From positions 50,656,001 through 50,720,000 of the forward strand of contig CM059432.1 of the NCBI GenBank assembly GCA_030390025.1: 64,000 nt of DNA. Reading direction: 5' to 3'. The notes under the pieces are model-generated. The model did no database searches, was not told where the DNA came from, and saw nothing but the letters and a program-made list of their open reading frames with translations. Each line of letters opens with the position of its first letter. Within the stretch, counting starts at the first letter, position 1. Both the position numbers and the translations under genes were made by a program. This stretch comes from Squalus acanthias. Taxonomy: Eukaryota. Positions 1,569 through 61,711 of the stretch are shown here, piece by piece.

Positions 1569-2201
1569 GTGCTGTCTGTGGCCGGTCCACTCGTGCTGTC
1601 TGTGGCCGGTATACTGACGCTGTATGTGGCCGGTCCACTCGTGCTGTCCGTGGCCGGTCCACTCGTGCTGTCCGTGGCCGGTACACTGACGCTGTCCGTG
1701 GCCGGTACACTGACGCTGTCCGTGGCCGGTACACTGACGCTGTCCGTGGCCGGTACACTGACGCTGTCCGTGGCCGGTACACTGACGCTGTCCGTGGCCG
1801 GTACACTGACGCTGTCCGTGGCCGGTACACTGACGCTGTCCGTGGCCGGTACACTGACGCTGTCCGTGGCCGGTACACTGACGCTGTCCGTGGCCGGTAC
1901 ACTGACGCTGTCCGTGGCCGGTACACTGACGCTGTCCGTGGCCGGTACACTGACGCTGTCCGTGGCCGGTACACTGACGCTGTCTGTGGCCGGTATACTG
2001 GTGCTGTCTATGGATGGTATACTGTTGCTGTCTGAAGCTGGTATGCTGGTGCTGTCTGAAGCTGGTATTCTGGCGCTGTCTGTGGCCGGTATACTGACGC
2101 TGTCTGAGGCTGGTATACTGGTGCTGTCTGAAGCTGGTATACTGGTGCTGTCTATGGCCGGTATACTGTTGCTGTCTGAGGCTGGTATACTGTTGCTGTC
2201 T
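1569..2201. repeat. 24-bp minisatellite (core unit GCTGTCCGTGGCCGGTACACTGAC, about 26 copies) at the start of CHMP4C intron 1
   Basis: Directly visible tandem array with a homogeneous core (~1690-1980) and diverged flanking units. It explains the repetitive ORFs 1348-1974, 1500-2324 and 1553-2035. Confidence 0.97.
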
Positions 2202-2211
2202 GGGCTCCTAC

Positions 2212-2413
2212 CTCTCTTGTTCTTGGTGCCGTTTCTCCGGGCGGTCTCCAGCTCTTTCTGGATCCTATTCTCCAGGTATTCCTGTTTCTTGGTCAACATC
2301 GCCTCGGTCTCCCGGAGACGATGAAGGGCTTCTTGTGGGCTCGGGCCCTGTTTCCTGGAGCGGGACGAGCCCGAGCTCGGGCCGCCCTTGAAGAAGTTTG
2401 CAAGTTTACTCAT
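2212..2413 (-). CDS. CHMP4C: Charged multivesicular body protein 4c (ESCRT-III, Snf7 family), coding exon 1; the rest of the gene lies left of the window
   Basis: ATG at 2413 gives MSKLANFFKGG...PSPQEALHRLRETEAMLTKKQEYLENRIQKELETARRNGTKNKR, then a phase-1 GTAGGA donor at 2211. This is a CHMP4 N-terminus; paralogue C is assigned from adjacency to ZFAND1. Confidence 0.92.
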
Positions 2414-2550
2414 AGCGATCGGCCGCCGCCGCCTCGAGCCGGACGGAAAAACAAGGAAGGCGCCGCGGCTCGCGCGACCGATCCGGAGGCACTTCCGGCC
2501 AAGCGGCTGTCGCTCGGTGCGGGGGCGGGGCGCCGGCGACAAAATGGCGG
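2414..2550. promoter_or_regulatory. Compact CpG-island bidirectional promoter shared by CHMP4C and ZFAND1
   Basis: 130 bp between divergent ATGs. ETS/GABP-type CACTTCCGG at 2490-2498, GC box GGGGCGGGG in 2521-2530, YY1-type CAAAATGGCGG at 2540-2550 overlapping the ZFAND1 ATG. Confidence 0.75.
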
Positions 2551-2598
2551 AGCTGGAGCTCGGGCAGCGGTGTGAGGTGCAGCAGTGCCGACAGCTCG
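2544..2598 (+). CDS. ZFAND1: ZFAND1 exon 1
   Basis: ATG at 2544, 55 nt, donor GTAGGA. Confidence 0.95.
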
Positions 2599-22280: not shown

Positions 22281-22871
22281 ATTTTAGAGTCACATTATTG
22301 TACAAGCAGTTTAATTCATACTCACATCACAGTTACGGTGTCTAACCATTTAGGCAATGTGAGGGCTTTGAACTACATAATGTGGCGGGTGATAATACTG
22401 TAGTTGGATTGTAACCAAATCTGTTAGTATTTTCATTGCAAGTGAAGAGCATGCAATTTGATTAATGATGTGACTGTTTCTTTTTACTTTCTAATAACTT
22501 AGTCCTGGAAATCAAAGTAAGGTACGGAAGAAAGTATTTGGAGCCAACAAGGAAGCACTGAGTAAAAAATACAGCAGCTTCTGTCAATCATTGACCAATT
22601 TTGGAACGGTGATTCATCATTTTGTTGTTAAAGCCACTGGAACAGATAAGGAATACTAGCAAAGTTTATTTCTCTCTTTTCAGACACTCCAGTAAGTGCC
22701 GAAATTAAAAGAAATTCTAGTAATGCTTCTGAAAAGGAAAATATAGTCAATGCAGTGTGAAGATACAGAAATAAGTGGCCGAGTTCAGTGAGTCTATCAT
22801 ACTGGGACCTAGGAAAAAAAGTTTTCGAAGCAGTGGATTGCAACACCGTCGCCAGTTAAATTATAACCAGA

Positions 22872-24134
22872 ATGAGGCAGATGTTTTATCTTATTTGGAT
22901 CTTCTTAGTAACAATGGAACGATCAAAGAACTCAGCTATGACAATTCAACATTTAAATTCTGACAAGGAACTTAAGATTTTAGAAAAGGCAAAAGGTGGA
23001 TTTATTGTTTCATCTACTTATGTGAAGAGTGCTTTCAGAGGAGAAGAGCAGAATCCTGAGATTGGGACGATAGTTAATGTGACTCGTGGATCAGATCTGG
23101 CCGTGTACAAGGTTTATATAAAACCTGGAAAACTAGGAGAGAGCAGCCTGGAAATCAAGCTCTGGGATTCCCTGGATGGCAGCGACGTTCCAGTTGAGCA
23201 TAAAAATGATATCAAAGTCCAAGTGATTCCAAATATATCCACAGGAAATTTAGCTGAACCAGCACAACATTTCACTGCAACCCCTCTGATGTACTTGCTT
23301 ATTCCATTGGTTTTATTGAACAAATGTGCTTTTGGGTGTAAAGTTGATTTGGAAACCTTAGTTAATATCTGGAACCAGCCCCATCCTGTTGTTATTGGTG
23401 CTGTAGTCCAGTTTGTACTGATGCCACTCTATGGGTTTCTTTTAACAAGGCTGGTTCAGTTGACTGAAGCTTTGTCTCTGGGCTTTATCATGGCTTGCTC
23501 TTGTCCTGGTGGAGGTGGCGGCTATCTCTATGCTCTGTTATTGGATGGAAATGTAACGTTGGCTATTACTATGACATTCACATCTACAGTGTTGGCAGTT
23601 TTTCTGATGCCAGTGTCTTTATCAATATTCAGTGTCATTTTGGATATATCACGTGATCTACACATTCCATTCTTTACAATTGGGTCCACACTCCTTTCTA
23701 TTGCAGTACCTATGTCGCTTGGAATATACTTCAAACATAAAATTCCTAAGGTAGCCAAAATCTTTGAAAGAATAATAAAGCCGTTTAGTATAGTAATAAT
23801 CACAGGTGGTTTTTATCTTGGTTTCAAAATGGGATCCACGTTCCTACAGAGCGCCGACCCAAAATTGTTTCTCATTGGATTGCTAGTCCCAGCATTTGGT
23901 CTCTTTACTGGGTACTTCTCTGCCAGCATATACAAACTCCCTCTTCCAGTTTGTAAGACCGTGGCGATAGAAAGTGGAGTACAGAACACATTAATAGCAT
24001 TGGCAATGTTGCAGTTTTCTTTCTCTCAACCAAAGGCTGATTTAAGCTCCGCCGCTCCTTTTGTTGTAGCTCTGAGTGCAGCCTGTGAGATGATATTACT
24101 GTTAATATTTTACAACTGCAGAAAAAGATGTTAA
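22872..24134 (+). CDS. SLC10A5: Sodium/bile acid cotransporter family member 5, single coding exon, 420 aa
   Basis: LLNKCAFGCKV, CSCPGGGGGYLYALLLDG, LPLPVCKTVAIESG motifs of SLC10A5; N-terminal hydrophobic leader; lies between ZFAND1 and IMPA1 as expected. Confidence 0.96.
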   Translation: MRQMFYLIWIFLVTMERSKNSAMTIQHLNSDKELKILEKAKGGFIVSSTYVKSAFRGEEQNPEIGTIVNVTRGSDLAVYKVYIKPGKLGESSLEIKLWDSLDGSDVPVEHKNDIKVQVIPNISTGNLAEPAQHFTATPLMYLLIPLVLLNKCAFGCKVDLETLVNIWNQPHPVVIGAVVQFVLMPLYGFLLTRLVQLTEALSLGFIMACSCPGGGGGYLYALLLDGNVTLAITMTFTSTVLAVFLMPVSLSIFSVILDISRDLHIPFFTIGSTLLSIAVPMSLGIYFKHKIPKVAKIFERIIKPFSIVIITGGFYLGFKMGSTFLQSADPKLFLIGLLVPAFGLFTGYFSASIYKLPLPVCKTVAIESGVQNTLIALAMLQFSFSQPKADLSSAAPFVVALSAACEMILLLIFYNCRKRC

Positions 24135-29120: not shown

Positions 29121-31686
29121 CATAGAAACATAGAAACATAGAACAATACAGCACAGTACAGGCCCTTCGGCCCTCGATGTTGTGCCGAGCATTGTCCGAG
29201 ACCAAGATCAAGCTATCACACTCCCTATCACTCTGGTGTGCTCCATGTGCTTATCCAATAACCGCTTGAAAGTTCCTAAAGTGTCCGACTCCACTATCAC
29301 AGCAGGCAGTCCATTCCACACCCCAACCACTCTCTGAGTAAAGAATCTACCTCGGACATCCCTTCTATATCTCCCCCCATGCACCTTATAGTTATGCCCC
29401 CTTGTAACAGCTGCCTCTACCCGAGGAAATAGTCTCTGAACATCCACTCTATCTATCCCCCTCATCATCTTATAAACCTCTATTAAGTCGCCTCTCATCC
29501 TCCTCCGCTCTAAAGAGAAAAGCCCCAACTCCCTCAATCTTTCCTCATAAGACCTCCCCCCCAAACCAGGCAGCATCCTGGTAAATCTCCTTTGCACTCT
29601 TTCCAATGCTTCCACGTCCTTCCTATAGTGAGGTGACCAGAACTGCACACAATATTCCAAATGTGGTCTCACCAAGGTCCTGTACAGTTGCAGCATAACC
29701 TCACGGTTCTTAAACTCAAACCCTCTGTTAATAAACGCCAACACACCATAGGCCTTCTTTACTGCTCTATCCACTTGAGTGGCAACCTTCAGAGATCTGT
29801 GTATATGAACCCCCAGATCCCTCTGCTCCTCCACGTTCCTCAGAACCCTGCCGTTGACCCTGTAATCCTTATTCAAATTTGCCCTACCAAAATGAATCAC
29901 CTCGCACTTATCAGGGTTAAATTCCATCTGCCATTTTTCAGCCCAGCTCTGCATCCTATCAATGTCTCTTTGCAGCCTACAACTGCCCTCCACCTCATCC
30001 ACTACTCCACCAATCTTGGTGTCATCAGCAAATTTACTGATCCACCCTTCAGTCCCCTCCTCCAAGTCATTGATAAAAATCACAAACAGCAGAGGACCCA
30101 GCACCGACCCCTGTGGCACACCGCTGGTAACTGGTCTCCAGTCCGAAAATGTTCCATCCACCACCACCCTCTGCCTTCTATGAGATAGCCAGTTACTTAT
30201 CCAATCGGCCAAATTTCCCTCTATCCCACAACTCCTTACTTTCTTCATGAGACGACCATGGGGAACCTTATCAAACGCCTTACTAAAATCCATGTATACG
30301 ACATCAACCGCTCTACCTTCATCTACACACTTAGTTACCTCCTCAAAGAATTCAATCAAATTTGTTAGGCAAGACTTACCCTTCACGAATCTGTGTTGAC
30401 TTTCCCTGATTAAGTTGCCCCTTTCCAAATGGTCATAAATCCTATCCCTCAGGACCTTTTCCATTATCTTACCAACCACCGAAGTAAGACTAACCGGCCT
30501 ATAATTACCAGGGTCATTCCTATTTCCTTTCTTGAAGAGAGGAACAACATTCGCCACTCTCCAGTCCTCTGGCACCATCCCCGTGGACAGTGAGGACCCA
30601 AAGATCAAAGCCAGAGGCTCTGCAATCTCCTCCCTTGCCTCCCAAAGAATCCTCGGATATATCCCATCTGGCCCAGGGGACTTATCGACCCTCAGGTTCT
30701 TCAAAATTGCTAAAACATCTTCCCTCAGAACATCTACCACCTCCAGCCTATCCACCTTTATCACACTCTCATCCTCAAGAACATGGCCCCTCTCCTCGGT
30801 GAACACTGACGAAAAGTATTCATTCATCACCTCTCCTATCTCTTCTGACTCCATGCACAAGTTCCCACTACTGTCCTTGACCGGCCCTACCCTCACCCTG
30901 GTCATTCTTTTATTTCTCACATAAGAGTAAAAAGCCTTGGGGTTTTTCTTGATCCGACCCGCCAAGGACTTCTCATGCCCCCTCCTAGCTCTCCTAAGCT
31001 CTTTTTTTAGCTCATTCCTTGCTACCTTGTACCCCTCAATCGACCCAACTGAACCTTGTTTTCTCATCCTTACATACGCTTCCTTTTTCCTCTTGACTAG
31101 ACATTCAACCTCTTTTGTGAACCATGGTTCTCTCACTCGGCCATTTCCTCCCTGCCTGACAGGGACATACCTATCAAGGACACGCAGTAATTGCTCCATG
31201 AAAAAGCTCCACTTTTCGTTTGTGCCTTTCCCTGATAGTTTCTGTTCCCATCTTATACTCCCTAATTCTTGCCTAATCGCATCATAATTACCCCTCCCCC
31301 AATTATAAACCCTGCCCTGCCGTATGGCCCTATCCCTCTCCATTGCAATAGTGAAAGTTACCGAATTGTGGTCACTATCTCCAAAGTGCTCTCCCACATA
31401 CAAATCAAACACTTGGCCCGGTTCATTACCCAGTACCAAATCCAACGTGGCCCCACCTCTTGTCGGCCTATCCACATATTGTGTCAGGAAACCCTCCTGC
31501 ACACACTGTGCAAAAACTATCCCATCCGAACTGTTTGACCTATAAAGGTTCCAATCAATATTTGGAAAGTTGAAGTCACCCATGACAACTACTCTGTGAC
31601 CTCCACACCTATTCATAATCTGCTTTGCAATTTCTTCCTCCACATCTTTATTACTATTTGGGGACCTGTAGAAAACTCCTAACAAC
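29121..31686 (-). mobile_element. Young CR1 LINE, 5'-truncated within the endonuclease domain
   Basis: Uninterrupted ORF2 remainder and (TTTCTATG)n 3' tail at 29121-29143. Confidence 0.96.
29208..31685 (-). CDS. CR1 ORF2 (partial AP endonuclease + reverse transcriptase), 825 codons open, transposon-derived
   Basis: MGDFNFPNIDW, DSDHN, YRPVSLTS, DFSKAFDKVPH, GVPQGSVLGP, KFADD motifs. Confidence 0.93.
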   Translation of the reverse strand: MLGVFYRSPNSNKDVEEEIAKQIMNRCGGHRVVVMGDFNFPNIDWNLYRSNSSDGIVFAQCVQEGFLTQYVDRPTRGGATLDLVLGNEPGQVFDLYVGEHFGDSDHNSVTFTIAMERDRAIRQGRVYNWGRGNYDAIRQELGSIRWEQKLSGKGTNEKWSFFMEQLLRVLDRYVPVRQGGNGRVREPWFTKEVECLVKRKKEAYVRMRKQGSVGSIEGYKVARNELKKELRRARRGHEKSLAGRIKKNPKAFYSYVRNKRMTRVRVGPVKDSSGNLCMESEEIGEVMNEYFSSVFTEERGHVLEDESVIKVDRLEVVDVLREDVLAILKNLRVDKSPGPDGIYPRILWEAREEIAEPLALIFGSSLSTGMVPEDWRVANVVPLFKKGNRNDPGNYRPVSLTSVVGKIMEKVLRDRIYDHLERGNLIRESQHRFVKGKSCLTNLIEFFEEVTKCVDEGRAVDVVYMDFSKAFDKVPHGRLMKKVRSCGIEGNLADWISNWLSHRRQRVVVDGTFSDWRPVTSGVPQGSVLGPLLFVIFINDLEEGTEGWISKFADDTKIGGVVDEVEGSCRLQRDIDRMQSWAEKWQMEFNPDKCEVIHFGRANLNKDYRVNGRVLRNVEEQRDLGVHIHRSLKVATQVDRAVKKAYGVLAFINRGFEFKNREVMLQLYRTLVRPHLEYCVQFWSPHYRKDVEALERVQRRFTRMLPGLGGRSYEERLRELGLFSLERRRMRGDLIEVYKMMRGIDRVDVQRLFPRVEAAVTRGHNYKVHGGRYRRDVRGRFFTQRVVGVWNGLPAVIVESDTLGTFKRLLDKHMEHTRVIGSVIA

Positions 31687-32984
31687 TCCTAAAACTCAAA
31701 ATTGAAAACTTACAGAGAGTGTCTGTGAAGTTGAGAAATGCTTGTCTTCCCAGCGACTTCTGCTTTTCTGTTTGAAAAGGTCTATTTTTATATCTTTTTT
31801 GGGTGGTTTATCCTTTGAAGTTTTCCTGATGATGTAAGCTAATTATTTCAAGTCATTCTTTGCTGACTTTGTTCTATTCTTTACTGTGATATCAGCTGTT
31901 AGCTTTTAGACTTGTGTCTCTACCTTTAGGTGTTTCAAAAACCTATCATAAAATGGTTATTATCGATTTATCTATTTGATGCTATTCTTAGGAAGTCTTT
32001 CTATTGAATTTCTAATGCTACTTTAACTGGTTATTATCAGACATTGTGACTCCATGGTATTCCAAGTTCAATACAAGAACAATGTAATTGCTTGATCCAT
32101 CCATTGAAGTAATATTTTTAAAGTCGTCTTATTTGTGTACCTTTTACAACTTGTAAATTAAAACCACTTTAACTAGTATCTTCATGCATTTCTATTTACT
32201 TCAATTGGTTTTTATTTAATCATGTTTCCTGTCTTATTTGATGTTAAATTATGAAGGCTTATGGTTGTTTAATATTCTAAGTTTCTGTTTGCATCAGTGT
32301 TAGCTTTTAACACTTTAAACTGGGCGATTCCATTGTGTTGGTTCCAATGTTCAGACATAGAGGAACCTTCAATGGTTTGCTTCAATAGGGCATTGTTTTA
32401 ATATTTTTAACTAATTCCCATTTCAAAGCTTGTGGTGTTTTACAACTTTGTTTAACAACTGATCTTATCTTAGAAGCCTGTATTCCTGCCTGCAGCCTGT
32501 GTCTGCTAAGGCTTATGTCTTTTAAACCCAGTATGTCATTTATTAATAATTTCAGAAATCTATTCTTAGTATCGTGTATTTTTCTGAATCCTGGCTATTC
32601 CTTCACAAGATCACAGACTAATGTGTGCAATTTTGAGCATCTCATTAGAGAAAGAATTTTAAATTGTCACTGAGTTAGGGGAAAGTGTTGGAGCATGGAA
32701 TGCTTTGCCACAGGGATAGGTGAAAGCATTGCATCTTTTAAGGGAAAATTTGCTAAATATTTGAAGCAGAGGAAAATACAAGACTGTGGGAAGAGAACAG
32801 GGCAGTGGGATTAAATTTGGGATCGTGCCAGCAAAGAGCCGCACAGAGAGGCCTCCTGTTTTGTAAGCCTCAATGATTCTAAAAGTCATAAAGATCTGCC
32901 TGCAGCTTAATTCTCACAATGTGTGCTCAGGCTGTCTTCGAGCCTGTCTTGGCTTTTGCTTCTGTTTGAGGATTCAGTTTTCCT

Positions 32985-36704: not shown

Positions 36705-39700
36705 GTGAGTAAATAAATGGGATTTGAATTGTGCTTATTTTCTATGTTCAGTAGATCTCGCCCACAAATCTTAAACTATCCAGGGAAATTTGTTTTCTTC
36801 TAAAAGACTATTTTTAAATGTTCAGTTGAACAATTTAGTGCAATTAAAATCATTTTAAACCCGTGATTATCTTTATTTCGTCATATTTCTATCTCAAACC
36901 ATGTACATAATCCTCATAAATTGCATCAAAAAGTCCATTATTTTTTAATATGAAGTTTAAGCATTTTATAAAACCAAAAATTTATTGACTTTCTTGTTCT
37001 GTGAGCACAGTCCAGCGTACCCAAATGGCTGCATGCTTGCTGAGGGAGGATAGATTTTTTTTATTTCCTTCCCAGGAAATGTCATTTTCAGTTTGGTCTT
37101 CATACTTTCTCCAAATCCACTATTGTTCCCTCAGGGATTTTTTCTTTATGTATTCCCTTTGGCAGGAATGACTCCTGTTCAGAGTAAGCCTACCTGTCTC
37201 ATAATTCCTTCCAGCAGAATGGCTGCTTATTTCTTCAGTTTTATAATAAGTCAAGTGCCATGAGACATGATTTCTCAATCTCAAGGTTATAAAAATGTCC
37301 TTTCTACAATACAGCTAACCATCTGGTAGTGGAACACACATAATAGAAAAGTTTCCTTGTAGCATTGCTTGATGTGCTAGAAACTTAACACATTCACTCT
37401 TCCTTATTACTAGAGAAATCATACATGGTCCAAAAACAGCTCGTGAAGTTAACTTACCTCATAACTAACTACATGGAATGCAGAATTTTTTATCTCATCA
37501 GTGAAAGGGTATGACTTTCTCATGAATCACTGGCAATTTGAAAATCAAACTGCATGTTCGTAGTATATTAAGTAGCACATCGCCTTGGTATGAATATGAC
37601 TGGGCGTTCTGAGGGATTGATGGCCCAAAAAATTGCTAATCTGTAAACTTTATCTAAATACATTGGCAAATAAAACTAGTGGATACCATTACTGCAGCTT
37701 CGATCTAATACCAACTAACAGTGTCACAGCATTCGAAAGTCAACCGTCCCACTGATTATAAGGTATTACTGCTGTGCACTGCAGAACACACCCTTTGTGT
37801 TCTCTCTGCCATTTGCTCCCCCCTAAAAAAATCTGGTCCAATTCTATTCATAAACCAGTTTCCTTTTAATTTATAACTGTAATATGCAAAATTTGAACAC
37901 ATGCATTATTATATTTAAAAATATTGTAAATTTTCTTCAATGTGCAGCCTCTTTCACTCACGGATTAAACAGCATTCAAGACTTTACATGCAGTGTGGTT
38001 CATACCTATCCAGTCTTCGCTTGGATTCCAAAATGTACCTTGAATGAAAGTGTCTACTTTTAAATCTGTAAATTTACAGAAGTACCTGACCATGTAATCT
38101 CGAAACAATGTGCAAGGAATATGGTGCCACAGTTATTGCTGTGATGATTAGTTGCTTACTGTATTTGTGTGGGTTTGGTGCAGTAGTGCACATGCACTTT
38201 GTTTAGTCATTCACTTTTTTTTGAAATAGCAAGAGAAACATTAATTCACCGCTCCACGCCCACTCAGACCTCACCGTCCTCGGCCTCTTGCATTGTTCCA
38301 CGGAAGCTCAGCGTAAGCTCGAGGAACAGCATCTCATCTTCCGATTAGGCACTTTACAGCCTTCCAGACTCGATATCGAGTTCAACAATTTCAGATCATA
38401 ACCTCGGCCCCTACCACATATACATATATATATTTTATCCCCCCCTTTTGGTTTGTGCCTTTTCCCTTTTTTTTTCTCTCTCTCCCCCACGGCAGCTGTC
38501 TTTCATTCTGCCAGCATTTCACACTTCACACTTCTGAGCCATCTTTTGTTTCTTAACCTGTCCTATTACTATCTCATCTTGCCTTGAGCATCTCTTAATG
38601 TCTCTACTTACCATAGACCACCCCTTTTGTTCTTCCTCCCCCCAGCCTCCCACTTGCTTTTTTTATCTGTTTCATTTCCTGCTTTTTTCTCAGTTCTGAT
38701 GAAGGGTCTTTGACCTGAAACGTTAACTGTTTCTCTCTCCTCGGATGTTGCCTGGCCTGCTGAGTTTTTCCAGCGTTTTCTGTTGTTGTTTCAAGAGAAA
38801 CATTGTGTTCAGTTGAGTATTTGAAATTTAGAAAACATCTGTAAACTGTCATTTGAACAAGTGTTGGTTCATTCAGAATGACTTTGCTAAGTTGCACTAG
38901 GTTTAGTTTATCTCTTTTCCTATTTATTTTATCCAAATTTTTAGTCAATGCAATGCTGAGGCAAAAATATGAATATTAAAAAAAACACATACATATTGAA
39001 GAATAATTGGAGGGGGAAAGGGAAGGAGTTGACATTTTTATTCTCAATATATTTCAATATTTTACATCTTCAAAGAGTATGAAAGGCAAATTCTTGTTCC
39101 CATTAGGAAATTATGGGGATAAAGGAATGTGACAGCTCCATGGGGTTCTGTAAATTTAAAACACTCATATTTTCTTTGCAGGTTATTTGTGAAGCTTTGA
39201 AAAAAGTACAGACCGTTCAGATTAAAAGTTCTCCTGCAGACCTGGTGACCGAGACTGATCAAAATGTAGAAAAAATGATTCTGTGCACCCTAAAGGAAAA
39301 ATTTCCTTCTCACAGGTAAAGGATTATTGTAATAATTTGAGTAGGAGTTGTAATTCTGAGCACTACTGCACCATATTAATGCACCACAAAAATATACTGG
39401 TCAAGAAGTTTTCAAATGAGAAATAAAAACAGAAAATTCTGGAAATACTCAGCAGGTCAGGCAGCATCTGTGGCGATAGAAACAAAGTTAATGTTTCAGG
39501 TCGATGACCTTTTTATCAGAACTGGAAAAAGTTCGAGCTCTAACAGGCTTTAAGCAAGTGCAGGGGCAGGGAAACTACAAAAGTAACTACAAAATGCCTT
39601 AACTTAAGAACTTTAATGTCTTACTGTAACTTTTTTATTTATTTCAGTTTTATTGGTGAGGAGTCAGTTGCAGATGGAGCAGCAAGTGTATTAACAGACA

Positions 39701-42700
39701 ATCCCACGTGGATAATTGATCCCATTGATGGGACCACTAATTTTGTCCACAGGTATGCTTTTTGGCTGGGAAAGGCTTCATGTTTATGGAGAAATGTATA
39801 CTGTATCGGCTGTGTCGATCTGATAAATTGAAGCTTTTTTCTTGTGTGCTTACGGAGCGTTATCTGAATATGGTTCTGTATTTCTAACTAACATAAAACT
39901 TTAAAACTACATGTTTAAAAGAAACTTCAAGATGCTTGGTGTGAAATTAACAGAAGTGGATATTGTTCATTCAACTCGGGCAATTTTGTTTTATAGGTTT
40001 CCCTTTGTAGCAGTTTCTATTGGCTTTTCTGTGAATAAACAGGTAATGCAAGTATTTTGTACAGAATTTAATTTTTTGTTCTGAATAATTTAATATTGGG
40101 AAGCAATGTGAGAATTGTAAACAATGAGAATGTTGTAAAGTAAAGCTACTGGGCAGGAGTTGTATGTTAGTCTTAAGAATATTGAACTGACATTCAATTA
40201 TACTCTTAGGATTTATCTGCCGCTGACCTACATTGGCTCCCAGTCCAACAACAACTCAAATTAAAAATTTGAATCCTTGTGTTCAAATCCCTCAATGGCC
40301 TCGTCCCATACTATCTCCGTAACCTCTATAAATACCTCGAGTCCTGCAACCCTCTGAACTCTGCATTCCTCCAACTCCAGTCGGTCTCTTGTGCATCCTC
40401 CACTTCCTTGGTGGCCATGCATTCAGCCGTCTAGGCCCTAAGCTCTAGAATTCTCTCCCCATACCTCTTTGCCTACCTACCTCTCTCCACCTTTTTAAGA
40501 GGCTCCCTAAAACCTACCTTTTTGACCAAGCGTTTGGCCACCAGCCCTAAGGTCATCTTCTTTGGCTCGGTGTCAGTTTTTGTTTGATTACACTCCTGTG
40601 AAGTGCCTTGGGGTGTTTTACTATGTTAAAGCCACTACATAAATGCAAGTTGTTGTTGAATTGTATCTCTCTTATTTGATTTTTCAGTTCAACACAGGCA
40701 GTTTTAACAGATGAAGCTAATATATTTCCTAGTGCACTGAGTATCTCATTTTCTATATATTGCATTTAGAGTGAAATTGGTGTTGTATATAGCTGTGTGG
40801 AGGACAAGATGTACACAGCTCAAAGAGGGCAAGGTGCATTTTGCAATGGGCAACGATTGAAAGTATCTGGACAAGAAGGTGAGTTAAAATCTTTCAGTTG
40901 CTTTGTGGTCACAAGGATGGTAAATTAGCTGGGCATCTTTGGGCTTTGGTAAGTATTTATGAAGAGAGAGTTCGAGGCTCCCTCGTTTTGGAGGCTTCAG
41001 AGATACAGATGTTCACGTGTTGAGTTAGATGGTGAAGAGAGAGTGGGAAGAAGCTAGTTTATGATCAGTGATCTTCAGCAAATTCAAAAATTATGCCTAT
41101 ATACAGGAAACTTTCGTTTATCCGGCACCCAAATATCCGGAATTCTCGCTTAACCGGCAAAAATCAGGTAAGTTTTATTATACAGACAAGACCCCGATTC
41201 TGACCTTTCGCCCCCACGAAAAGGGGGTCAACGTTCTTCCGACTCGGACCTGTCGCCGCCACGGAGGAAAAAGCCGGAGTCTCGTTTACCTTCCCTCTCC
41301 GGGTCCCAATTGTTCAGCCTGTGGCCGTGTACGGGGCTCTCGTACCTTGGTAAGTATACCTCTCTGTAATCCGGCACTTTCGATCAACCGGCACCACGCC
41401 GGTCCCGTCGGTGCCGGATAAACGAAAGTTTCCTGTAGCTGATTTTACTATCCAGTTAAAGTATGAGCCTTCATAATTTTAATTAAATTATAAATAAAAG
41501 TACTTTCAACAATTAATTTATTGTTTTAAAAAAATGCTCATTAAAATTGGAGTACTCATTTTGAATTAGTGACCTAGATTTGTTTTGGGCTCTTTCTATT
41601 AGGTCACATTAAAGGCAACAGATACATAACATAGTCTGTCTTTGTAGTCAGATGAGGTGCTTCTTCATGTGGCTTTTTGGGGATGCAATAGAATGTTTTC
41701 ATTTGAAAATCTTCAATCTCCAGACAGCCCAGACAACCTGGATACACCACCCAATGAGCAGTTGTAAATGAGCACTATCAGAAAGTTGGTGGGAGAAGGT
41801 TGCCTGCCTGTACAATGGTACCTGGCATGTGTGGGGTGGGGGGATGGATGTAATTGTTTTCATATGATACGAATGCATGCCAAAGTCTAATCTGTCGTAG
41901 ATATACTTTCATTTTTTTTTAATTACAGGCTTCTTTTATGAACATTTATTGAATAGGATTAATCTGTCTGTGTAGATGTGAATGTTCTTGTTCTCTCTCC
42001 ACAATTACTCTAATATCAAATAACTGCTCTGGCAATAGTTGACCTTGTGGTTAGAGCACATTTTTCTATTTCTAAGCACTTATGCCAGCATACCTTAGAT
42101 CCCAAATGGAAATTTATTTCAGGTGGACCACCTCTGAAACCATTCTGTTTGAAAGAATTAAAACCTTACATTTAAACAGGGCTTTACACGTCTCCGGATG
42201 TTCCAAAGCATTTCTCAGCCAATGAATTACTTTTGAAGTGTAGTGTATATAATAACCCCACTGTGGGAACACCATCCATCACAAGAACTGCAGCAGTTCA
42301 AATAGAAAGCTCACCAACATCTTCAGGGCGGCGAGGGATGAGCAACAGATGTGGCTTTGCCATCATCACCCACATCTCAAGGACATATTTTTAAAGAAGT
42401 CACTGTTATGTAGGCAAGCACAGCATCCAATTTGCACACGGCAAGGTCCCACAAACAGTATTACGATAAATGACCAGTTAATCTGGGCCTTGGGTTAACA
42501 TTTTATCTGAAAGATAACACCTCCGACAAAGCAGCACTGCTTCAGTAGTGCAATGAAGTGGCTGTGGTTTTTGAGTAAATTAATAGTAATATTCACTTTT
42601 TTAGTTTTTCCCAATTTCTCCCCTCCCTACAATTGCTTTTTGTTTTTCCAGTTTTCTGTTGCTGGGGTATGACTCCATGGATACAGGCAGCTCTCCATTA

Positions 42701-45700
42701 ACTTGCACAAGTGGCCAGTCTTCATGTGCAACCTTAGACAGTGAGTGTCAGCAAGCTGTTTTGACAGCTGAGAGCATTACAGCCCAACCCAGTCAAGTTC
42801 TCACCTGATGTTTTTACACGCACACTTCCAGCAGGTGTGGGAATCCTGGCTAAAGTTTTTTTTTCCTAGCACAGGGATGTTGAGACCAATTGCAGTGCTT
42901 CAACTGAGATCGAATAACACAGCATGCAGCAGGAACATGGGATCCTGTATGGGTTAGTGCTTCATTAGATGGTGTCTTTATCCATTCGACCAATAGAGGA
43001 GCTGATATTAACATTTCTCATCTGCCTTTGCTGACCTTCATCCATAAGTTGACAAACTTGCCAACCCATGCTTTTTGAGTCTTGGGACATTTGGTTGCTT
43101 CTGGAGGTAAACTCTTCCCCCTCCCCACCCCCCCCCCCCCCCCCTGAAAACATGTGAAGAATCTAATAGTCCACAGGGAAATTGGAGAGTTAAATGTTGT
43201 AATCAAAGAAGTGCTCCTCTTCTCGTATGTCAGTTTTCCTGTACTGATGCATGATTTGCAGTTAGATATTCTTGCCTTGCCATTGTATGTAGTTGAATAA
43301 TTGTCCATTAAATGTTGTAGATATAAGCAAAGCTCTTATAGTAACAGAGCTTGGGTCTAATCGCACACCAGAAATCGTGAAGACGGTTCTTTCAAACATG
43401 GAAAAACTAATTTCTATTCCGAGCCATGGGTAGGTATCTTAACTTTCACAAATGACATATGAAATTGACTTTTTTTGTATGTGGACTGTTGTTCATTCAG
43501 ATAATGCTGTAGCTGTAATAGACAATGTGCATACAATTTCTTTGCTAGAAACTCCTAGGATGAACTGAGAAGCAGTTTCACTTCTGGGACCAGAGTTCTA
43601 GTCTAGTCCAGACTCATGGGGTGTAAGTGTCCTCTGTCTACTGACTGTAAAGGTCCTATTTGGAATGTGTTTCAGTAGTCTCCAATTCAATATTTTAGGC
43701 ATAGGTTAAAAATAATAGGGTAGAGAGAATGTGTATGTCAGGAAAAATTGAGTAGGTGCCATCAAACGTAGGTTTTAAAAACCTTTAGGCTGTAAGAGGG
43801 ATGTTAGAAGGTCTATAGTTTTGACTCTGGGGAAAAATGAGCTGGAGCAGAGGACAAAGTCATTGATATGAAGAACCAAGTGGGAGAGAGAATGGAGTCC
43901 TGTGTTGGTGGAGAAAGTCCATGAATGAGCTAGAGTAGGGAACAAAGTATGGGCTCTGATATCAACATCGAGGATACAGGTGGGGAGGAATGCATATTTG
44001 GAATTTGGGAGGCAAGTGGGGATGACTGGGTGGAGGCTGGAGAAACGGGAAGAGAGGATTGCGACTAGAGGTAAAACAAAAGATCCGTCAGCTGATTTTT
44101 TGTGTGCGTCCTGTCCAGGACTGTGCAAAAGGTATCCGAGGTGTGAATCTTTAGGTAAAGGAACAGTTTCAAATCCTGGACAGACTTGGGCTTTACAGAG
44201 TTGGAAGTTTTCGGAGGCAGGTTGAGCAATAAAGTTGATGTAGGAATTTAATTTGAGATCAGAGTTGTTGATGAGGTCAATAATGTCTTTAGATTAAAAA
44301 GGACTAAGGGTGGGTTCATCAAAGGGAGGAGGTTGGCAATTGTTGGTTGAAATTGTATTTGAAGAATTAAGGGAAGATGTTCCATCGCTTCACTTAGTAT
44401 GGAAAACATCAAAATTGCACTGAGGAGAATAATACTTTCTGAATATGTTTCAGAATTCGAGCTCTGGGAACTGCAGCTGTAAACATGTGCATGGTGGCAA
44501 CCGGTGGTGCAGACGCCTACTATGAGATGGGAATTCACTGCTGGGATATGGCAGCAGCCGCAGTCATTGTTACTGAGGCTGGTGGTGTTGTGCTGGATAT
44601 ATCAGGTAGTTTTGAGTCATGAATTCGCTGTTTTGTATATAAGTGGAACTTTCTAGTATATTTTCAGATCATGGTTTTTCTGGTAAAAGCAGACTCCTTT
44701 ACTTGAATAGATTCAAATCTTTAAAAAAGATTACTTTCAGATTTAGGAGCAATGCACACATTTGTAAAATTTAGATAAAATGCCAACTTCTTTGCGCATC
44801 TTCAGATGATGCTATTCAGTCAGATTTGGTCAAAAAAAGTGCTTAAAATTTACAAAATGGTTTCTCAATATGTGCACTTAATTTCTAATCCTTAGCATTA
44901 AAGTACATTCTGCACATGGCAGGCGTATACCTAAATTCTTTGAACTGCTATTAAATGGTGGCATGTTCCCCTCCCTTTCAAAACTGCAGTCATCAGTCCA
45001 TCCTCAAAAAGATACCCCTCTGTCTTTGCAAACTACTGCCCCATTTCCAATCTCCCTTTCCTCTCAAGTCCTTGAATGTGTTGTCCCCTCCTAAATCTGT
45101 GCCCATCTTTCCTGCAACTCCCAGTTTCAAGTTCTGACCCTCCCAAAGTACCAAATTTGCCCTAACCAAAGTCACAAATGACATCTCTGTGACTGTAACC
45201 ATAGTGCCTTATCCCTCCTCATCCTCCCTGCAGCCTTTGGTACAGTCAGCTATACCAATCTCATTCCTCCATTGTCCAGTGGGACTGTTCCTGCTTGGTT
45301 CCATTTTTAAGTATATGATCATAGACAAAGCATCTCTAACAATGGCTTCTCTTCTTTCCCCCACACTATTACCTCTGCAATCCCCCAATTAACCATCCTG
45401 GTCCCCTGCTCTTCTTCATCTACATGTTGCTCCTTGGCGACATCATGAGCTTCCATGCTGATGACACCCAGCTCTACCTCTCCACTACCTCTCCCAATCC
45501 GTCTACTGCATCTGTGTTGTCAGCTTGCTCGTCCAACATCCAGTCTTGGATTTGCTGCAATTTCCCACAGTTAAACATTGGAAAAACTATAGTCATCATC
45601 TGCGGCTCCTGCCACAAACTCTGTACCCTTGCCGCCAATTCCATCCCCCTCCCTGGCCACTGTCTCAGGCTGAACCTGACTGCTCACAACCGCTGTTTCC

Positions 45701-55781: not shown

Positions 55782-55859
55782 TCAGATGGAAGCAAATGAT
55801 CCTAAACTATTGTTGGAAACAGTTTGTTGATGGTCCAGCTTTAGTTCATTCATTAGTTT
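55782..55859 (-). CDS. RNF31-like terminal coding exon
   Basis: tttttaacag acceptor, KLMNELKL...ASI*, phase 0. Resembles the KLxxExxL end of HOIP. Confidence 0.75.
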   Translation of the reverse strand, partial: KLMNELKLDHQQTVSNNSLGSFASI

Positions 55860-58800
55860 CTGTTAAAAATAAACCAGATAACATATGTTAGTTTCACATG
55901 GAAGGTTTACCTCTGAACAAAATGTCCTCCTCTGACACCCAAGAACTCAAAAACAAAATATTTTTTAGACATCACCCAAGACTCATTTAAGCATGTACCT
56001 CCATCGAGAAAGATTCATTTAAACTGCAACCAAATTCAACAGAATTCACAGAAGATGGCTAGTTATTACAATTCACTCCATTTTTGGTCTTAAGATGTGC
56101 AGTTTATGTCTACCTCACATTTAATTTAATTCAGTGAATTTAGTGCCACTGGATGAACATTTAAATTGGTAAATTTTAATTTGAAATGACAAAAGAATGG
56201 ATGTAAATAGAGTAATGTTTCACCCTCTACTAACTTGAGTGGAGTTAAAAAAATAAAATGCATTGTCTGGGGTCTATATCTACAGCTACTGTCACTCAAC
56301 TAGTAGGTGCAAGTCAAGCAGCATAAGCTTATCTTTATCAGTTTCTCCTTGGTAAGAATACCTCAACACTGCTGCTTCCCATCATGTAGCCCCATTAAGA
56401 GAGGAAGGTCATCCAACCAAGGCTAGTTAAGTAAGAGTAATCCTTGGAGATTTAATCTATTTTGTACTGCGGACTAATTCCCACAACCTGTTTTGCTCAA
56501 TGAGACACTTTGGACCTGAAAACTTGCAATCTGCCGATGCAGAGAGATCCTGACCCCGCTGGAGTTTCTGGGCTCAGGAAGTTTGAATAAAACAGGTCCT
56601 CATGCCAGTATGGGTGTATCTTGGGCACCCACTAGAGGGCAGCAGAATAAAACATGCTCCTGGGAAGTCAATATCAGTACAATGCTGACAGGACTGGCCA
56701 CAAAGGTCTGGTATCTTAGAATTGGCCTTCTTTAGCAGAGGATTGATTTCAATGCATCTGTATTATAACTGCAGAAATTCTCCAGACTAAGTCCCAGGCC
56801 TTAAACCCCACTTCTATCATTCACAGGTACTGTATTTTGCCAGCGTATAGCACGTCAGGTGCATAGAAAGTGTGAACAGCAGGAAATCTGGCAGGTGATG
56901 CTATCCACCCTTCGTCGAATACGCCAGATCTCCATGGAACTTCCGCATGCCCGCTGGGAGAAATCCCTAGTTATGATCTTTGCAGCGGGGACCCAGCATT
57001 ACCGGACCTGCTCGTCAACTTCTGCCCCAAGTATGTTGCTGGCCACGAGGAAATGCGAGGTCCTTGTGTCATTGTTTGAAATTAATACAGAGCAGGGCCA
57101 ATTTTCCAAATGCATGCTCCTCACAGTTAAAAAAGAGGTCTTGAAAAGTTTTTTTTTTAAATTCTGTGCTCATCAAGGTGAGGGAAGTTGATGCTGGAGA
57201 GAGGATCACTTGCTGATTCAGGTATCGCATAGCTGGATGCAGAGTAAAGCTCACGCTGCACTTTCCCAATGATGTGCCTCAGCCTGAACCTCAGAAGAGC
57301 ATCCCCTACAAGATGACACCTATTCCATTTCTCACAACAACAATCCTTAGGTCAGTGACATTTGCAAAAGAGGGACAGTTTTGGGATGTACACCCATGCC
57401 AACTAGGAAATGGGCTGAGAATGCTCAAATGCATTTCTCATAGGACTTTTATCCCATCTGTCCGGGCTGGATTTGAACTCAAGTTCCGGAGGTGAATTGG
57501 TTGATTCAATTTTGGGTATGCAATGTATTAATAGTTAATGTAGTGATAGCTAATGCATTTAATTGTACACAGGAGTTAATTTTCTTTGAGATTTTTGATA
57601 ACTTACTTTTCTTAGTCTTTGTGTAAATTGTTCTTCCAGTTCATTCACGTGCTGGTTAGGGATAGCGACACCCCAGCGTTTTAGTTCCATTAACATTTCC
57701 TCCTTGCTGTATAGTACAGCTGGGTCCAAAGAAGTTTTATTAATGAGTTCCACCAAATACTGTTTAAAATGGATTCTGTAATGACGATGAGAGAGCTGTG
57801 TCAAATAAAAGTCTTTGGACACTTTTATTAATAAGTCTTTATATTTTTCCCCTGCGTGCAGTTTTAAACTGTCAAATTTGAATAGCAATACTTTGTTAAA
57901 ATAAAAATGTCCCATGACAACTACAATGAAAAACTTGGCCAGTCTTATTTTGGTTAGGTATCAGTTTAAGAGAGTAAATACTGTTCATTAAAAATAAAAT
58001 GCAAGCATTTATAAGTTAAAACTAATTGCAAGAATAGTTTTAATTTTTAAAAGCACGATATTTTGAGACAATGACTATGATAACAGCAGCAACATAAACA
58101 TCTCAGTGCTTTACAAGGTGAGAGGTAGATACTGAACAGGACAGGAGGGATTAAGGAGGAAACCAAAGGAATGGTTGAAGAAATTGGTTTTCAAGTGTCT
58201 TTTGAAGATGAGACAAGAGGGGGCTAGATGAACTAACTTTGGAAAAGTATTCCAAAATAAAAGGATATAATGAATGAAGGATAAACCTTTGATGAGTAGG
58301 GAAAAAGCTGTAATCCAGAGTTAGAAGAGTGGAGGTTGTGACTGGGGCATATGGCTGGAAAATAACATTCTGATGTGATGAAGTGAAGCCATAAAGGGTT
58401 TTAAAAAGTGAGGAAGGAGATCCTATAATTGATTTGCTGGGGTATGGGAAGTCAGTGCTGCTTTGCAAGGACAGGAATCATGCTGTATTGCTTTGTATTA
58501 CCTAAGGTTTGTAGATAGTTGAGCACAGTAAAGAGGGCATTAAAGAACTCAATCCTCAAGATGATTAGGATTTCAGCAGCAGTGGTAGTAGGGGAAAAAA
58601 GAGCATTGTGGTTGCACACCACCAGGTTTAGCCTGAGCAGCCAGCTTGGAAAGTTAATGTTGGCAGGTGGCAAAAAGGATGGCTTCAGCTTGTTAACAAA
58701 ATGCACACCCCAGGGTTATGTTAGACATGGAGTTGGACAGTACAGAAACAGCCTTGGACTTCATGTTGTTGGTGGAGAGATAGTGTTGGGTGTTACCAGC

Positions 58801-61711
58801 AATGTTCCCGCTAAGCTGGGCGGCCACGCAGCTGTCTGTCAGTCCCGCGCAGCTCGGGATCAGCTTTTCCAATAGGAAATTTTGAGCATGCGCAAAACTT
58901 TGAATGGGCCGCGCAGCCCGTTAAAGGGACCATGCACCCCCAAAAGAAATGAGGGGAACATTGGTTACCAGTATACAGGCGGAAGCCGACCTCATGCTTG
59001 TGAATAATGTTGCTGAGCGGTTGCATGTAAATGAAGAATTGGAGGGGACCAAGGGTGGAGACCTGGGGCACACAGGAGGTGAATTAGAAAAGCAGCTGCT
59101 GGATTGAGTGCTCATAAGAGTGGTGAGAATATTAGTCAGCACTAACAAAATTCAACTTCAAGCTTCATAGTGAGGCACAGAGAGATGAACCTCACAACGA
59201 GGCACAGAGATGAACCTCATAACTTTCAATGACACTCAAACCTGGGTACTTAAAAATAAATAGGTGTCAGCCATGGCTCAGTGGTAGCTCTCTTGTCTCT
59301 GAGTCAGAAGGCCTTGGGTTCAAGTCTACTCCAGAGATGAGCACATAATCTAGGCTGACACTTCAGTGCAGGACTGAACCCTCATCTGCCTTCTCAGATG
59401 GACATAAAAGATCTCACAGCACTACTTCTTCCGGTTACCTGGCCAACATTTATCCTTCTGCCAACATCACTAAAATAGATTTTCTGGTCAGTTATCCAAT
59501 TGCTGTGGGACCTAGTTTGCGCAAATTGTTGCGGTCTTTCTCCACAGTTTATTACAATAAGCAGGGCACAACTATACAGGAAATAATGGGGGAATGCAGA
59601 AGTCAGTCTCCTGTGTAAGCCACTTTGATACAAGATTAAGCATAATGCATAGAGATTAAAAGCCTATACCATCACCTTTGGAACTGACTTGAAGATTTCC
59701 AAATATTAGAATCATTACAAATGGACTAATGTTAAGCTTTTAAGTACTATTTTCAATAAGTAGGAGGTACCATAGTTGCCTCAGAAAACACCATCTTAAG
59801 CATACTCATGTTCAGAGAAATGTCAACTCAGATTATCATTTCACTTACTCGCAGAAGCCCGAGTAGCCTTTAACTGAAGTGTGTCCACACTGCTCATCCT
59901 TCAGACCATGTGAGGTTTCTTTCTGCTCCATAACCTTACATTTACCTAAAGAAGCACAGTGTTTATCATGGAGAACAAAGTTTTGCGATCCACTACTAAT
60001 ATTTACAGAAAAAGCTGGATTAAATTTTATTGCCCCATTGGATGCAGCATAAATGCAAATAAGGTTTTTTTTAAATTTCATGCACAAAAAGGTAATTCTG
60101 TATTATGGATTTATATGAAGAAGCCAAGTATTGAGTCATCATTTACATGTAAATCCAGATAATCACAAAATGACATATGTCCAAAAAAAGTTTCTCTGTT
60201 ACAAATGAAAATATTGGTATCACAGTATCACTATACTGCCTTTAGGGCAAGAATATCTGTGTTGCTGGGTCACGATCTGCTGAATATTAACATATAATTT
60301 CACAAAAATTAAAAAGTGATTTTTCCTTTTTCCGTACATTTCATTAGTTCTGTGGTAAAACAAAATCATGCAGAGCCATTATTGGGGTTGGGAGCAATGT
60401 TTTAAATTGAACACTGTTCACTTCTGTCAAATGTATAGTTTAGCATACAGCATCTTGTGTGTGTCTATAGATATGTATATAAAACACCAGATACTCTGTG
60501 CTAAACTACATGTGAGCGACACCATGGGCGAGCTACTCTTACTGTCAAAGGACACAGAAACTTAAGGGTGCATACAAATTATATTCTTATGCAGTATACC
60601 ACCCATTATTTAAAGCCAATAGTTATTACCTTCCACCTGTCCTAGACTGTTATCTGTTACAAAGGCAGTCAAGGAAATACCCTCCGTCTGTATGAAAGGA
60701 AATCACAGACATTAAGAAAGTGCTAAAAAAGCCAATTGTTTTGGTATTTAATAAAGTATAATATGACAAGAATAATATGACTGTAGAAGGGACAGCTTTA
60801 ACTAAAAAATTGGCTAGTTTATTTAAAAAACTGTGTTGACATACTCATAAATGTTGTCCTATGAGAAACCTTCTCTCCCCATATACAAATCCTCCACTTC
60901 AAGACTCGATGTGGAGTTCTGACAATCCACTGACTCAGTGAAGAAGCCTGTCTGCTTGAGGTTCCACAGGGAACTTCCTAGATCAGCAGCTGGGTTGGCA
61001 TGATTCATTATGAGCCAATTACTGCTCCTACCAGTTAGGAGTTTTCTAAAAGTTATCCACCATACCATATCGGGTGACTGTCTGTGTGGAGTTTGCACAT
61101 TCTCCCCGTGTCTGCGTGGGTTTCCTCCGGGTGCTCCGGTTTCCTCCCACAGTCCAAAAATGTGCGGGTTAGGTTGATTTGGCTATGATAAATTGACCCT
61201 TAGTGTTAGGGGGGGATTAAATATGTGGGGTTACGGGGATAGGATGGGATATGTTAGGGGGAATTAAATACGTGGGGTTACGGGGATAGGGTGGGATATG
61301 TGTCGGTGCAGGCTCGATGGGGATTCTGTGTGAGAAAGCAGGGACAGGGTACTGGATTTGGATGATCAGCCATGATCGTATTGAATGGTGGAGCAGGCTC
61401 GACGGGCCGAATGGCCTACTCCTGCTCCTAGTTTCTATGTTTCTATACCTAATGTTAGTCTTTGGGGAGGGGAATCAAGGAGTAGTCTGTATTGAAAGTC
61501 CTCACTCTACGATAATGCTCCCTCTTGTTAAATTATTTGAAATGCATTTACAGTACTCTAGGCAGAGTAGAACATCAAGAAATTAGATACGACTCACATT
61601 TAATAGTTGCTGCATCCGTTCCACACTCCAGTCTCTGAGGTGATAGAAACAGTCCCGGGGATGATGTGCATGCAAACCCTTTGTATGGCAGTTACTCATG
61701 AATGTACAAGC
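55782..61711 (-). CDS. RNF31/HOIP-like RBR E3 ubiquitin ligase, last five coding exons: 61598-61711, 60630-60687, 59849-59945, 57607-57775, 55782-55859; 5' part beyond the window
   Basis: Spliced in frame, all GT-AG: ACTFMSNCHTKGLHAHHPRDCFYHLRDWSVERMQQLLN-TEGISLTAFVTDNSLGQVEG-KCKVMEQKETSHGLKDEQCGHTSVKGYSGFCE-IHFKQYLVELINKTSLDPAVLYSKEEM...FTQRLRK-KLMNELKLDHQQTVSNNSLGSFASI*. Matches the recalled HOIP motifs HHPRDCLFYLRDW, CRVMEQKE..GLRDEACG, GLC..HYKEYLVSLIN..SLDPA.LY. Confidence 0.92.
57607..57775 (-). CDS. RNF31-like LDD exon
   Basis: ttacag acceptor, IHFKQYLVELINKTSLDPAVLY..., GTAAGT donor. Confidence 0.92.
58100..59150 (-). mobile_element. Old L2-type LINE fragment
   Basis: VPQVSTLGPLQFFIYMQPL RT motif, highly decayed. 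Confidence 0.65.
58800..58963. mobile_element. hAT-type MITE, 164 bp
   Basis: TIR CAATGTTCCC...GGGAACATTG with perfect 8-bp TSD GTTACCAG (58792-58799, 58964-58971). Confidence 0.92.
59265..59535 (+). mobile_element. DeuSINE-like SINE with internal deletions
   Basis: TGGCTCAGTGG...GGTTCAAGTC tRNA-like A/B boxes followed by the shared core. Confidence 0.75.
59849..59945 (-). CDS. RNF31-like LDD exon
   Basis: ctttag acceptor, KCKVMEQKETSHGLKDEQCG...GYSGFC, GTAAGT donor. Confidence 0.93.
60630..60687 (-). CDS. RNF31-like linker exon (58 nt)
   Basis: cctttcatacag acceptor and GTAATA donor; phase 0 to 1 exactly bridges its neighbours. Confidence 0.8.
61070..61447 (+). mobile_element. V-SINE (HE1-like) lacking its tRNA head
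   Basis: V-domain GGAGTTTGCACATTCTCCCCGTGTCTGCGTGGGTTTCCTCCGGGTGCTCCGGTTTCCTCCC plus CR1-type tail. Confidence 0.88.
61598..61711 (-). CDS. RNF31-like zinc-finger/LDD exon
   Basis: acaacag acceptor, C..C..LHAHHPRDCFYHLRDW, GTGAGT donor. Confidence 0.94.

Follow-up and report, generated by a model that had tools for sequence, protein, structure and literature searches.

The genome of the spiny dogfish (Squalus acanthias) holds a second gene built around the catalytic core of HOIP (RNF31), the catalytic subunit of LUBAC. The stretch of DNA analysed here, called the window, is 64,000 nucleotides long and covers C8:50656001-50720000 of a 3.71-Gb assembly. In it lies the 3' end of a shark gene, intact and conserved, that encodes an RBR E3 ubiquitin ligase of about 865 residues. 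This is a different enzyme on HOIP's catalytic core, with other domains in front. Our preferred reading, held with reasonable confidence, is that this vertebrate-born RNF31 paralogue is a UEV-NID-RBR-LDD ligase that makes Met1-linked ubiquitin chains without the LUBAC partners, and that it is recruited through its UEV and NID domains.

An initial annotation, made from the letters of the window, had proposed a second HOIP gene with an alternative LUBAC-like system around it. Its main point, that there is an ancient second gene whose LDD is of HOIP type and which non-amniotes have retained, was right. It was wrong in seeing another LUBAC.

Five small exons on the minus strand of the window (Table 1) splice in frame into a C-terminus of 171 residues. 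The initial annotation had described the same five, and all are found where it placed them. The junctions all follow GT-AG, with phases that fit from exon to exon (0-0, 0-1, 1-2, 2-0, 0-stop). Exon edges were refined by junction optimization against a shark homologue. The fourth exon from the end, also with GT-AG borders, has tblastn support from the shark homologues P0004 and P0007, and its length of 58 nucleotides (1 modulo 3) agrees with the phases of its neighbours. In the fifth exon from the end, the zinc-finger insert of RING2 finishes and the LDD begins, in the pattern C-x5-C...H-x-HHPRDC...HLRDW. The first of these zinc motifs had been given as C-x4-C; the sequence reads CTFMSNC, which is C-x5-C.

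The resemblance of these exons to HOIP is far above chance. A 45-residue frame around the fifth exon from the end matches six distinct human RNF31/HOIP chain sequences, with E values from 1.4e-9 to 1.2e-8. The second-last exon, whose sequence occurs only once in the genome, matches human HOIP chains (4ljo) at about 4e-5. The LDD profile PF18091 matches the third-last exon (E 5.3e-9, profile positions 26-58) and the second-last exon (E 3.1e-9, positions 60-92), with bit scores of 36.5 and 37.2 against a curated cut-off of 23. Together, the human chain matches and the two profile matches bear out the assignment to a zinc-finger/LDD module of HOIP type.

For the whole gene model, 70 kb past the window edge was added. 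Shark homologues were placed on this extended region by tblastn, after which every junction was optimized. The resulting model has 22 coding exons, running from C8:50770872 down to position 55782 of the window, a span of at least 59 kb. All introns are GT-AG, the 852 residues contain no stop before the terminal one, and no splice site is broken. The gene is thus intact and no pseudogene. The RING2 exon, which lay out of reach of the initial annotation, is found 5.7 kb past the window edge at C8:50725676-50725807. It carries a GGC-I-H motif with the catalytic Cys and His, and matches the Pfam profile IBR_1 at E 1.4e-16. The gene's own exons also match the UEV profile PF05743 (1.6e-10) and the NID profile PF07292 (3e-8).

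The domain order is UEV, a disordered linker, an NID/RRM-like domain, a short helical domain, RING1-IBR-RING2 and LDD. All three shark homologues that were scanned read UEV, NID/RRM_PARP14, RING, IBR, IBR_1 (RING2) and LDD. A search with one exon of the gene, labelled D, among longer proteins gave eight shark proteins of 797-915 residues that are 76-91% identical. In the basking-shark homologue P0004, residues 470-839 match the RBR-LDD of human HOIP (5edv) at E 9e-105 with about 41% identity. Residues 16-134 match the UEV of TSG101 at E 9e-22 (4e-23 when queried alone), and residues 305-390 match the NID of NMI at E 1.3e-8 and that of IFP35 at 4e-3.

An AlphaFold model of P0004, based on a 31-member alignment, shows three folded parts and two disordered linkers. 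Foldseek finds HOIP RBR chains for this model, and also the ubiquitin-bound TSG101 UEV 1s1q, with a TM score of 0.86 and a root-mean-square deviation of 2.0 A. A predicted complex between the UEV (P0004 13-150) and the RBR-LDD (P0004 437-845) scored 0.01/0.00 against a mark of 0.34, without controls, which speaks neither for nor against docking in cis.

The front half is where the gene departs from HOIP. The initial annotation had called it an RNF31/HOIP-like gene and had pointed to UBA, NZF and PUB domains as what to look for upstream. These are absent from the gene family, whose N-terminus is a UEV. No match to PUB, RanBP/NZF or UBA_HOIP was found in the shark, coelacanth, carp or frog members scanned. 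Among the 120 UEV-family proteins listed of 358 matches, none carries PF16678 or PF09409, while 109 have an annotated UEV together with RBR and LDD. The RNF31 proteins of lamprey, hagfish, electric ray, caecilian, horse and amphioxus all have UBA_HOIP, and all but that of lamprey have a PUB match. Without HOIP's front domains, no docking site is evident in the UEV family for HOIL-1L and SHARPIN (UBA) or for OTULIN and SPATA2 (PUB). The likeness to RNF31 does not extend to the whole protein, and the idea of a LUBAC-like system is not supported.

The catalytic half is strongly conserved. Residues C661, H663, R711, D712 and W713 (P0004 numbering) and the zinc ligands are invariant in an alignment of 31 family members, which upholds the earlier statement that the Arg-Asp of LRDW and the Cys/His ligands are retained. 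In a 38-row alignment of the family, HOIP and invertebrate HOIP-like proteins, 47 columns are invariant in every row, including GGC.HF.C, H.HH.R.C and RD. The columns of the RING2 catalytic Cys and its neighbouring His are both among those without exception. A search of this alignment for family-specific substitutions, meaning residues that all 15 non-frog family rows share and that differ from at least 18 of the remaining 20 rows, gave none.

These residues have known roles in HOIP, where Arg935/Asp936 act in acceptor binding. Cys885 and His887 hold catalytic roles (PMC5135002), and the acceptor ubiquitin lies in a cradle of LDD and RING2 from which only its Met1 reaches Cys885 (PMC5413910, PMC5135002). 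The RBR-LDD alone is enough for linear-chain specificity, and C930 in the HHPRDC motif matters for binding the acceptor ubiquitin (PMC3463842). The same source describes full-length HOIP as inactive until the UBL of HOIL-1L or SHARPIN binds its UBA.

The origin of the family was investigated by a phmmer search of P0004 against 1.84 billion representatives, which yielded 197 proteins at E <= 1e-30. Two groups stand apart in bit score: family members reach at least 484, other HOIP-like proteins at most 410, and horse HOIP 366. The RBR-LDD region was excised from the proteins that cover it (227 of 272). Trees were computed with FastTree on 133 rows and with IQ-TREE on 38 labelled rows and 400 columns (LG+C20), and the two agree.

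In the IQ-TREE result, the 18 UEV-family rows form a clade with support of 100/100. Another 100/100 clade holds the gnathostome RNF31 proteins (electric ray, two teleosts, caecilian, bird and horse), and a third (100/99) holds those of lamprey and hagfish. The three join as a vertebrate clade (98/91), within which the tree does not settle the order. Next outside this clade come tunicates (96/88) and amphioxus (93/83), with other invertebrates further out. The spiny-dogfish gene sits in an elasmobranch subclade (100/99), and is 88% identical to a Heptranchias protein over 400 columns. An approximately unbiased (AU) test, for a group chosen after the tree was seen, rejects a tree that keeps the PUB/UBA-type chordate proteins in one group and puts the UEV family outside that group (difference in log-likelihood 20.0, p 0.00285).

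The tree thus points to a duplication on or close to the vertebrate stem. This is the pattern expected of an ohnologue left by the genome duplications early in vertebrate evolution, and the UEV family is probably such an ohnologue of RNF31/HOIP. The initial annotation had proposed just this, and had also named the contrary outcome, a sole RNF31 that groups with mammalian HOIP. The family forms its own vertebrate-born clade instead.

A second HOIP locus had been expected in this genome, and it exists. Its PF16678 match, UBA_HOIP exons on the unplaced contig C242 (106,950 bp), led to a canonical RNF31 that was traced with sawshark RNF31-like (P0123) and horse RNF31 (P0127) as queries. PUB, NZF, UBA_HOIP and RING1 exons are all present there. 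They are 70-86% identical to sawshark RNF31-like, whereas the same queries match the C8 gene weakly, at 37-53%. On this GC-rich contig the UBA exon is duplicated near 31.5 kb, and that copy ends at a run of N.

Scans of the whole assembly, two of them with a stricter first pass, recovered no IBR, RING2 or LDD exons for the canonical gene. Below 18.4 kb, beyond RING1, C242 consists of some 18 kb of satellite DNA. The missing 3' part is probably an assembly gap, since shark RNF31 models in databases are also often partial, and less probably a real truncation of this gene.

The genome therefore holds two HOIP-type genes, and the one in the window is not a translocated RNF31. That the window gene is the organism's sole RNF31, a translocated orthologue of mammalian HOIP, would agree with a whole-genome PF18091 scan in which the window locus alone exceeds the cut-off, and with the name 'RNF31' that several members bear in RefSeq. 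It is refuted by the C242 locus and by the tree, where the full-length PUB/UBA-type RNF31 of the electric ray belongs to the 100/100 clade of horse, bird, caecilian and teleost RNF31, away from the UEV family. With a UEV and NID where RNF31 has PUB, NZF and UBA, the chance that this explanation holds is close to nil. The third PF18091 match of the scan, at C2:108480092 (E 8.5), lies in a retroelement reverse-transcriptase-like frame and was set aside as a chance hit.

Named members of the UEV family come from sharks, rays, skates, sawfish, a chimaera, coelacanth, gar, bowfin, many teleosts and several frogs. Among the 120 matches listed of 358 there is no reptile, bird or mammal. The proposed loss in mammals agrees with this, as far as protein databases go. 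Ten further representatives comprise nine from fishes or frogs and one from a sponge, the latter with a score summed over several stretches. In the ESM Atlas, the nearest clusters are chordate. Five Logan-derived proteins from other species have 731-879 residues on contigs of 2.5-3.0 kb (P0036, P0070, P0071, P0092, P0118). Given that the gene here spans tens of kilobases, such contigs would be spliced transcripts.

The sponge protein, P0131 of Ephydatia muelleri (883 residues), reaches 520 bits against the shark protein over 5 stretches, above amphioxus or lamprey HOIP-like proteins. It may carry some RBR parts more than once, or the model may stem from mis-assembly or contamination.

The gene was suspected to be auto-annotated as RNF31-like in other genomes already, and this is the case. 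Its members go by 'RNF31', 'RNF31-like', 'E3 ubiquitin-protein ligase lubel', 'LOC...' and 'uncharacterized protein si:dkey-181m9.8'. The shark gene is the orthologue of that last one, a predicted zebrafish gene. It has no mention in the literature searched, which did not include supplements or subscription journals, and a description elsewhere is possible. Among the matches listed, titles and abstracts on UEV/RBR/HOIP or on RNF31 paralogs in zebrafish contain nothing on the paralogue as a distinct gene. Papers retrieved on RNF31 or linear ubiquitin in teleosts do not deal with it either. Salmon proteomics and trout genome-wide association papers equate 'RNF31-like' with LUBAC's RNF31. Two papers take zebrafish rnf31 knock-downs as loss of linear ubiquitination (PMC8614155, PMC12778051), and their excerpts do not mention a second gene. 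The gene is known as an automatic annotation under misleading names, and appears unstudied.

If the enzyme works as HOIP does, RING1 would bind E2~ubiquitin, and the ubiquitin would move onto the RING2 cysteine of GGC-I-H-F. The LDD would then position an acceptor ubiquitin, whose Met1 amino group would attack, with the neighbouring His as base. The product would be Met1-linked chains, an activity that the conserved core makes likely for the shark enzyme. Lacking the UBA pair, which serves autoinhibition and HOIL-1L/SHARPIN binding, and lacking PUB, the enzyme should act without LUBAC partners, much like LUBEL. Without PUB, there would also be no PUB-mediated recruitment of OTULIN or CYLD. Recruitment or regulation of the enzyme probably falls to the UEV, which may bind ubiquitin or P(S/T)AP motifs, and to the NID, with NMI/IFP35-type protein contacts that are possibly interferon-linked.

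A wider reading, to which we give an even chance, is that jawed vertebrates ancestrally had two independent Met1 ligases. These would be LUBAC and a stand-alone UEV-NID-RBR-LDD enzyme, the latter kept in sharks and bony fishes, decaying in frogs and lost in amniotes. The stand-alone enzyme would need no docking of HOIL-1L, SHARPIN, OTULIN or SPATA2. It would perhaps act on endosomal or viral targets that are ubiquitinated or carry PTAP, or play a part in interferon responses.

Several observations weigh against a Met1 ligase of this kind. Met1 specificity is a prediction from conservation. The RBR-LDD of the family is 40.6% identical to horse HOIP, and about 41-45% identical to any PUB/UBA-type HOIP. 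Its stem branch after the duplication is long (0.74), so the acceptor surface may have shifted. Frog members (P0064, P0113, P0018) have a weak LDD, at 27-60 bits versus 85-90 in fishes, and no NID match. By-eye alignment of two frogs shows that the zinc finger in the LDD helical base has lost its Cys-Gly and His ligands, while the RBR and HHxR.C...LRDW are kept. This argues that the LDD is not indispensable throughout the family. The frog changes may reflect relaxation or a changed function in tetrapods, and the sequences suggest decay in tetrapods before the loss in amniotes. There is no transcript evidence for Squalus acanthias: 14 runs from 4 studies share 17-37% of sampled words, and none is recorded as RNA. 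Finally, the start codon and a first coding exon of about 14 codons could not be placed. Upstream of the first matched exon, the frame stays open for 30 nucleotides before it closes, and a pyrimidine-rich AG acceptor just inside the first match leads one to expect an earlier short exon.

The branch length, the modest identity to HOIP and the frog losses would also fit a working RBR ligase with a remodelled LDD that has no Met1 specificity. It could make Lys chains, mono-ubiquitin or ester linkages, or use a non-ubiquitin acceptor; HOIL-1, also an RBR protein, forms ester bonds (PMC9016349). Yet sharks, coelacanth, gar and teleosts keep every LDD zinc ligand, HHPRDC...LRDW and the Cys-x-His active site. 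An acceptor-ubiquitin cradle no longer in use would hardly leave the entire LDD under such constraint, which makes this alternative unlikely. Far less probable still is a scaffold without catalytic activity, or a gene that is decaying or not expressed (a pseudogene). The lack of dogfish RNA, the missing first exon, the apparent loss in amniotes and the degeneration in frogs could be cited for it. The undamaged 22-exon model, the 88% identity to another shark, catalytic residues that never vary among the 31 members and the long open reading frames on the presumed spliced contigs of other species all speak against it. A Met1 ligase that works without LUBAC partners remains our preferred reading.

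The surroundings of the gene are of the CHMP4/IMPA type that the initial annotation had described, with Snf7, SLC10A5-like and IMPA-like exons in place (Table 1). The shark block appears to match the human 8q21.13 order CHMP4C, ZFAND1, SLC10A5, IMPA1. Human RNF31 lies near CHMP4A on 14q12, and no RNF31-like gene is known at human 8q21. The window also contains mobile elements. Positions 29211-31688 (-) hold an open 826-residue frame of a long interspersed nuclear element (LINE), with endonuclease and reverse transcriptase (RVT_1, E 1.4e-36), and 8567-10105 (+) hold another reverse transcriptase fragment. Overlapping open frames of 219 and 415 residues at 1351-2650 (-) have weak low-complexity Pfam matches (Cornifin, gp5 trimerisation), and are probably a tandem repeat and not a gene.

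Table 1 Coordinates of the gene, its neighbours, the canonical RNF31 locus and the parts of the P0004 model.
Feature	Location	Strand	Details
Coding exon, 5th from end	window 61598..61711	-	ACTFMSNCHTKGLHAHHPRDCFYHLRDWSVERMQQLLN; acceptor ending in cag, donor starting with gtgagt, phase 0-0
Coding exon, 4th from end	window 60630..60687	-	58 nt; variable LDD linker TEGISLTAFVTDNSLGQVE and first base of Gly codon
Coding exon, 3rd from end	window 59849..59945	-	LDD zinc-finger/beta-hairpin part, KCKVMEQKETSHGLKDEQCGHTSVKGYSGFC
Coding exon, 2nd from end	window 57607..57775	-	LDD helical base; starts IHFKQYLVELINK, (E)IHFKQYLVELINKTSLDPAVLY
Last coding exon	window 55782..55859	-	KLMNELKLDHQQTVSNNSLGSFASI; stop TGA at 55784-55782
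UEV-coding exons	C8:50770872-50770773, 50766404-50766339, 50760187-50760024, 50758813-50758723		tblastn and junction optimization
CHMP4-type Snf7 exons	C8:50638689-50641358		about 15 kb left of the window
SLC10A5-like single-exon gene	window 22860-24131	+	uninterrupted 424-residue frame, SBF E 1e-37, NTCP5/P3 N-terminal domain
IMPA-like inositol monophosphatase exons	window 39173-44610	+	PF00459, best exon E 2.1e-17
Canonical RNF31	C242, ~18,400-68,500	-	PUB ~68.4 and 60 kb; NZF 37.2-37.7 kb; UBA ~26.6 kb; RING1 21.2 and 18.5 kb
P0004 model, UEV	residues ~8-146		pLDDT ~90
P0004 model, linker	residues 147-303
P0004 model, NID-like	residues 304-394
P0004 model, linker	residues 395-423
P0004 model, helical domain and RBR-LDD	residues 424-840

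The LDD has been called HOIP-specific, and LUBAC the sole E3 that builds linear ubiquitin chains (PMC5413910). Here is a second gene with a conserved RBR-LDD and other targeting domains, which is older than the split between sharks and bony vertebrates, and which is present in zebrafish. If its product is active, linear ubiquitin signalling in fish has an unrecognised branch that is independent of LUBAC, and the database names 'RNF31' and 'RNF31-like' conflate two enzymes in fish immunology papers. Should the reading with two ligases be true, LUBAC as the only linear-chain ligase becomes a mammalian special case, and zebrafish rnf31 knock-downs leave some M1 capacity.

Related systems are known. 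Human HOIP (5EDV, 4LJO, 6SC5) shares the RING1-IBR-RING2-LDD core with the shark gene family, including the catalytic Cys-x-His, HHPRDC...LRDW and all zinc ligands. The short helical domain directly before RING1 aligns as well. HOIP however has PUB, B-box/ZnF, NZF and UBA_HOIP where the UEV family has UEV and NID, and the two are in separate clades. The zebrafish gene si:dkey-181m9.8 and the RefSeq shark, fish and frog models are of the same family and architecture, yet they are computational models only.

TSG101 of ESCRT-I (1S1Q, 1KPP) has a like UEV fold, joined there to the ESCRT-I core and in the shark gene to a ligase. The likeness is one of overall fold and sequence. TSG101 was caught with a HOIP RBR-LDD bait in a two-hybrid screen, and stimulates HOIP(633-1072) in vitro (PMC10336271). 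By analogy, this activation of human HOIP could be the trans counterpart of what the UEV fusion does in cis. An active shark enzyme would make that fusion with the HOIP core a testable hint on how TSG101 stimulates HOIP in human cells. The NIDs of NMI and IFP35, and the PARP14-type RRM, are similar domains; the shark gene has one NID-like unit, placed within a ligase.

The best functional analogy is Drosophila LUBEL (CG11321), an RBR-LDD ligase that makes M1 chains alone (PMC5413910), with neither HOIL-1L nor SHARPIN. It differs in that it keeps B-box, NZF and UBA in some 2,900 residues, and it is the invertebrate HOIP orthologue, with arthropod rows outside the vertebrate clade.

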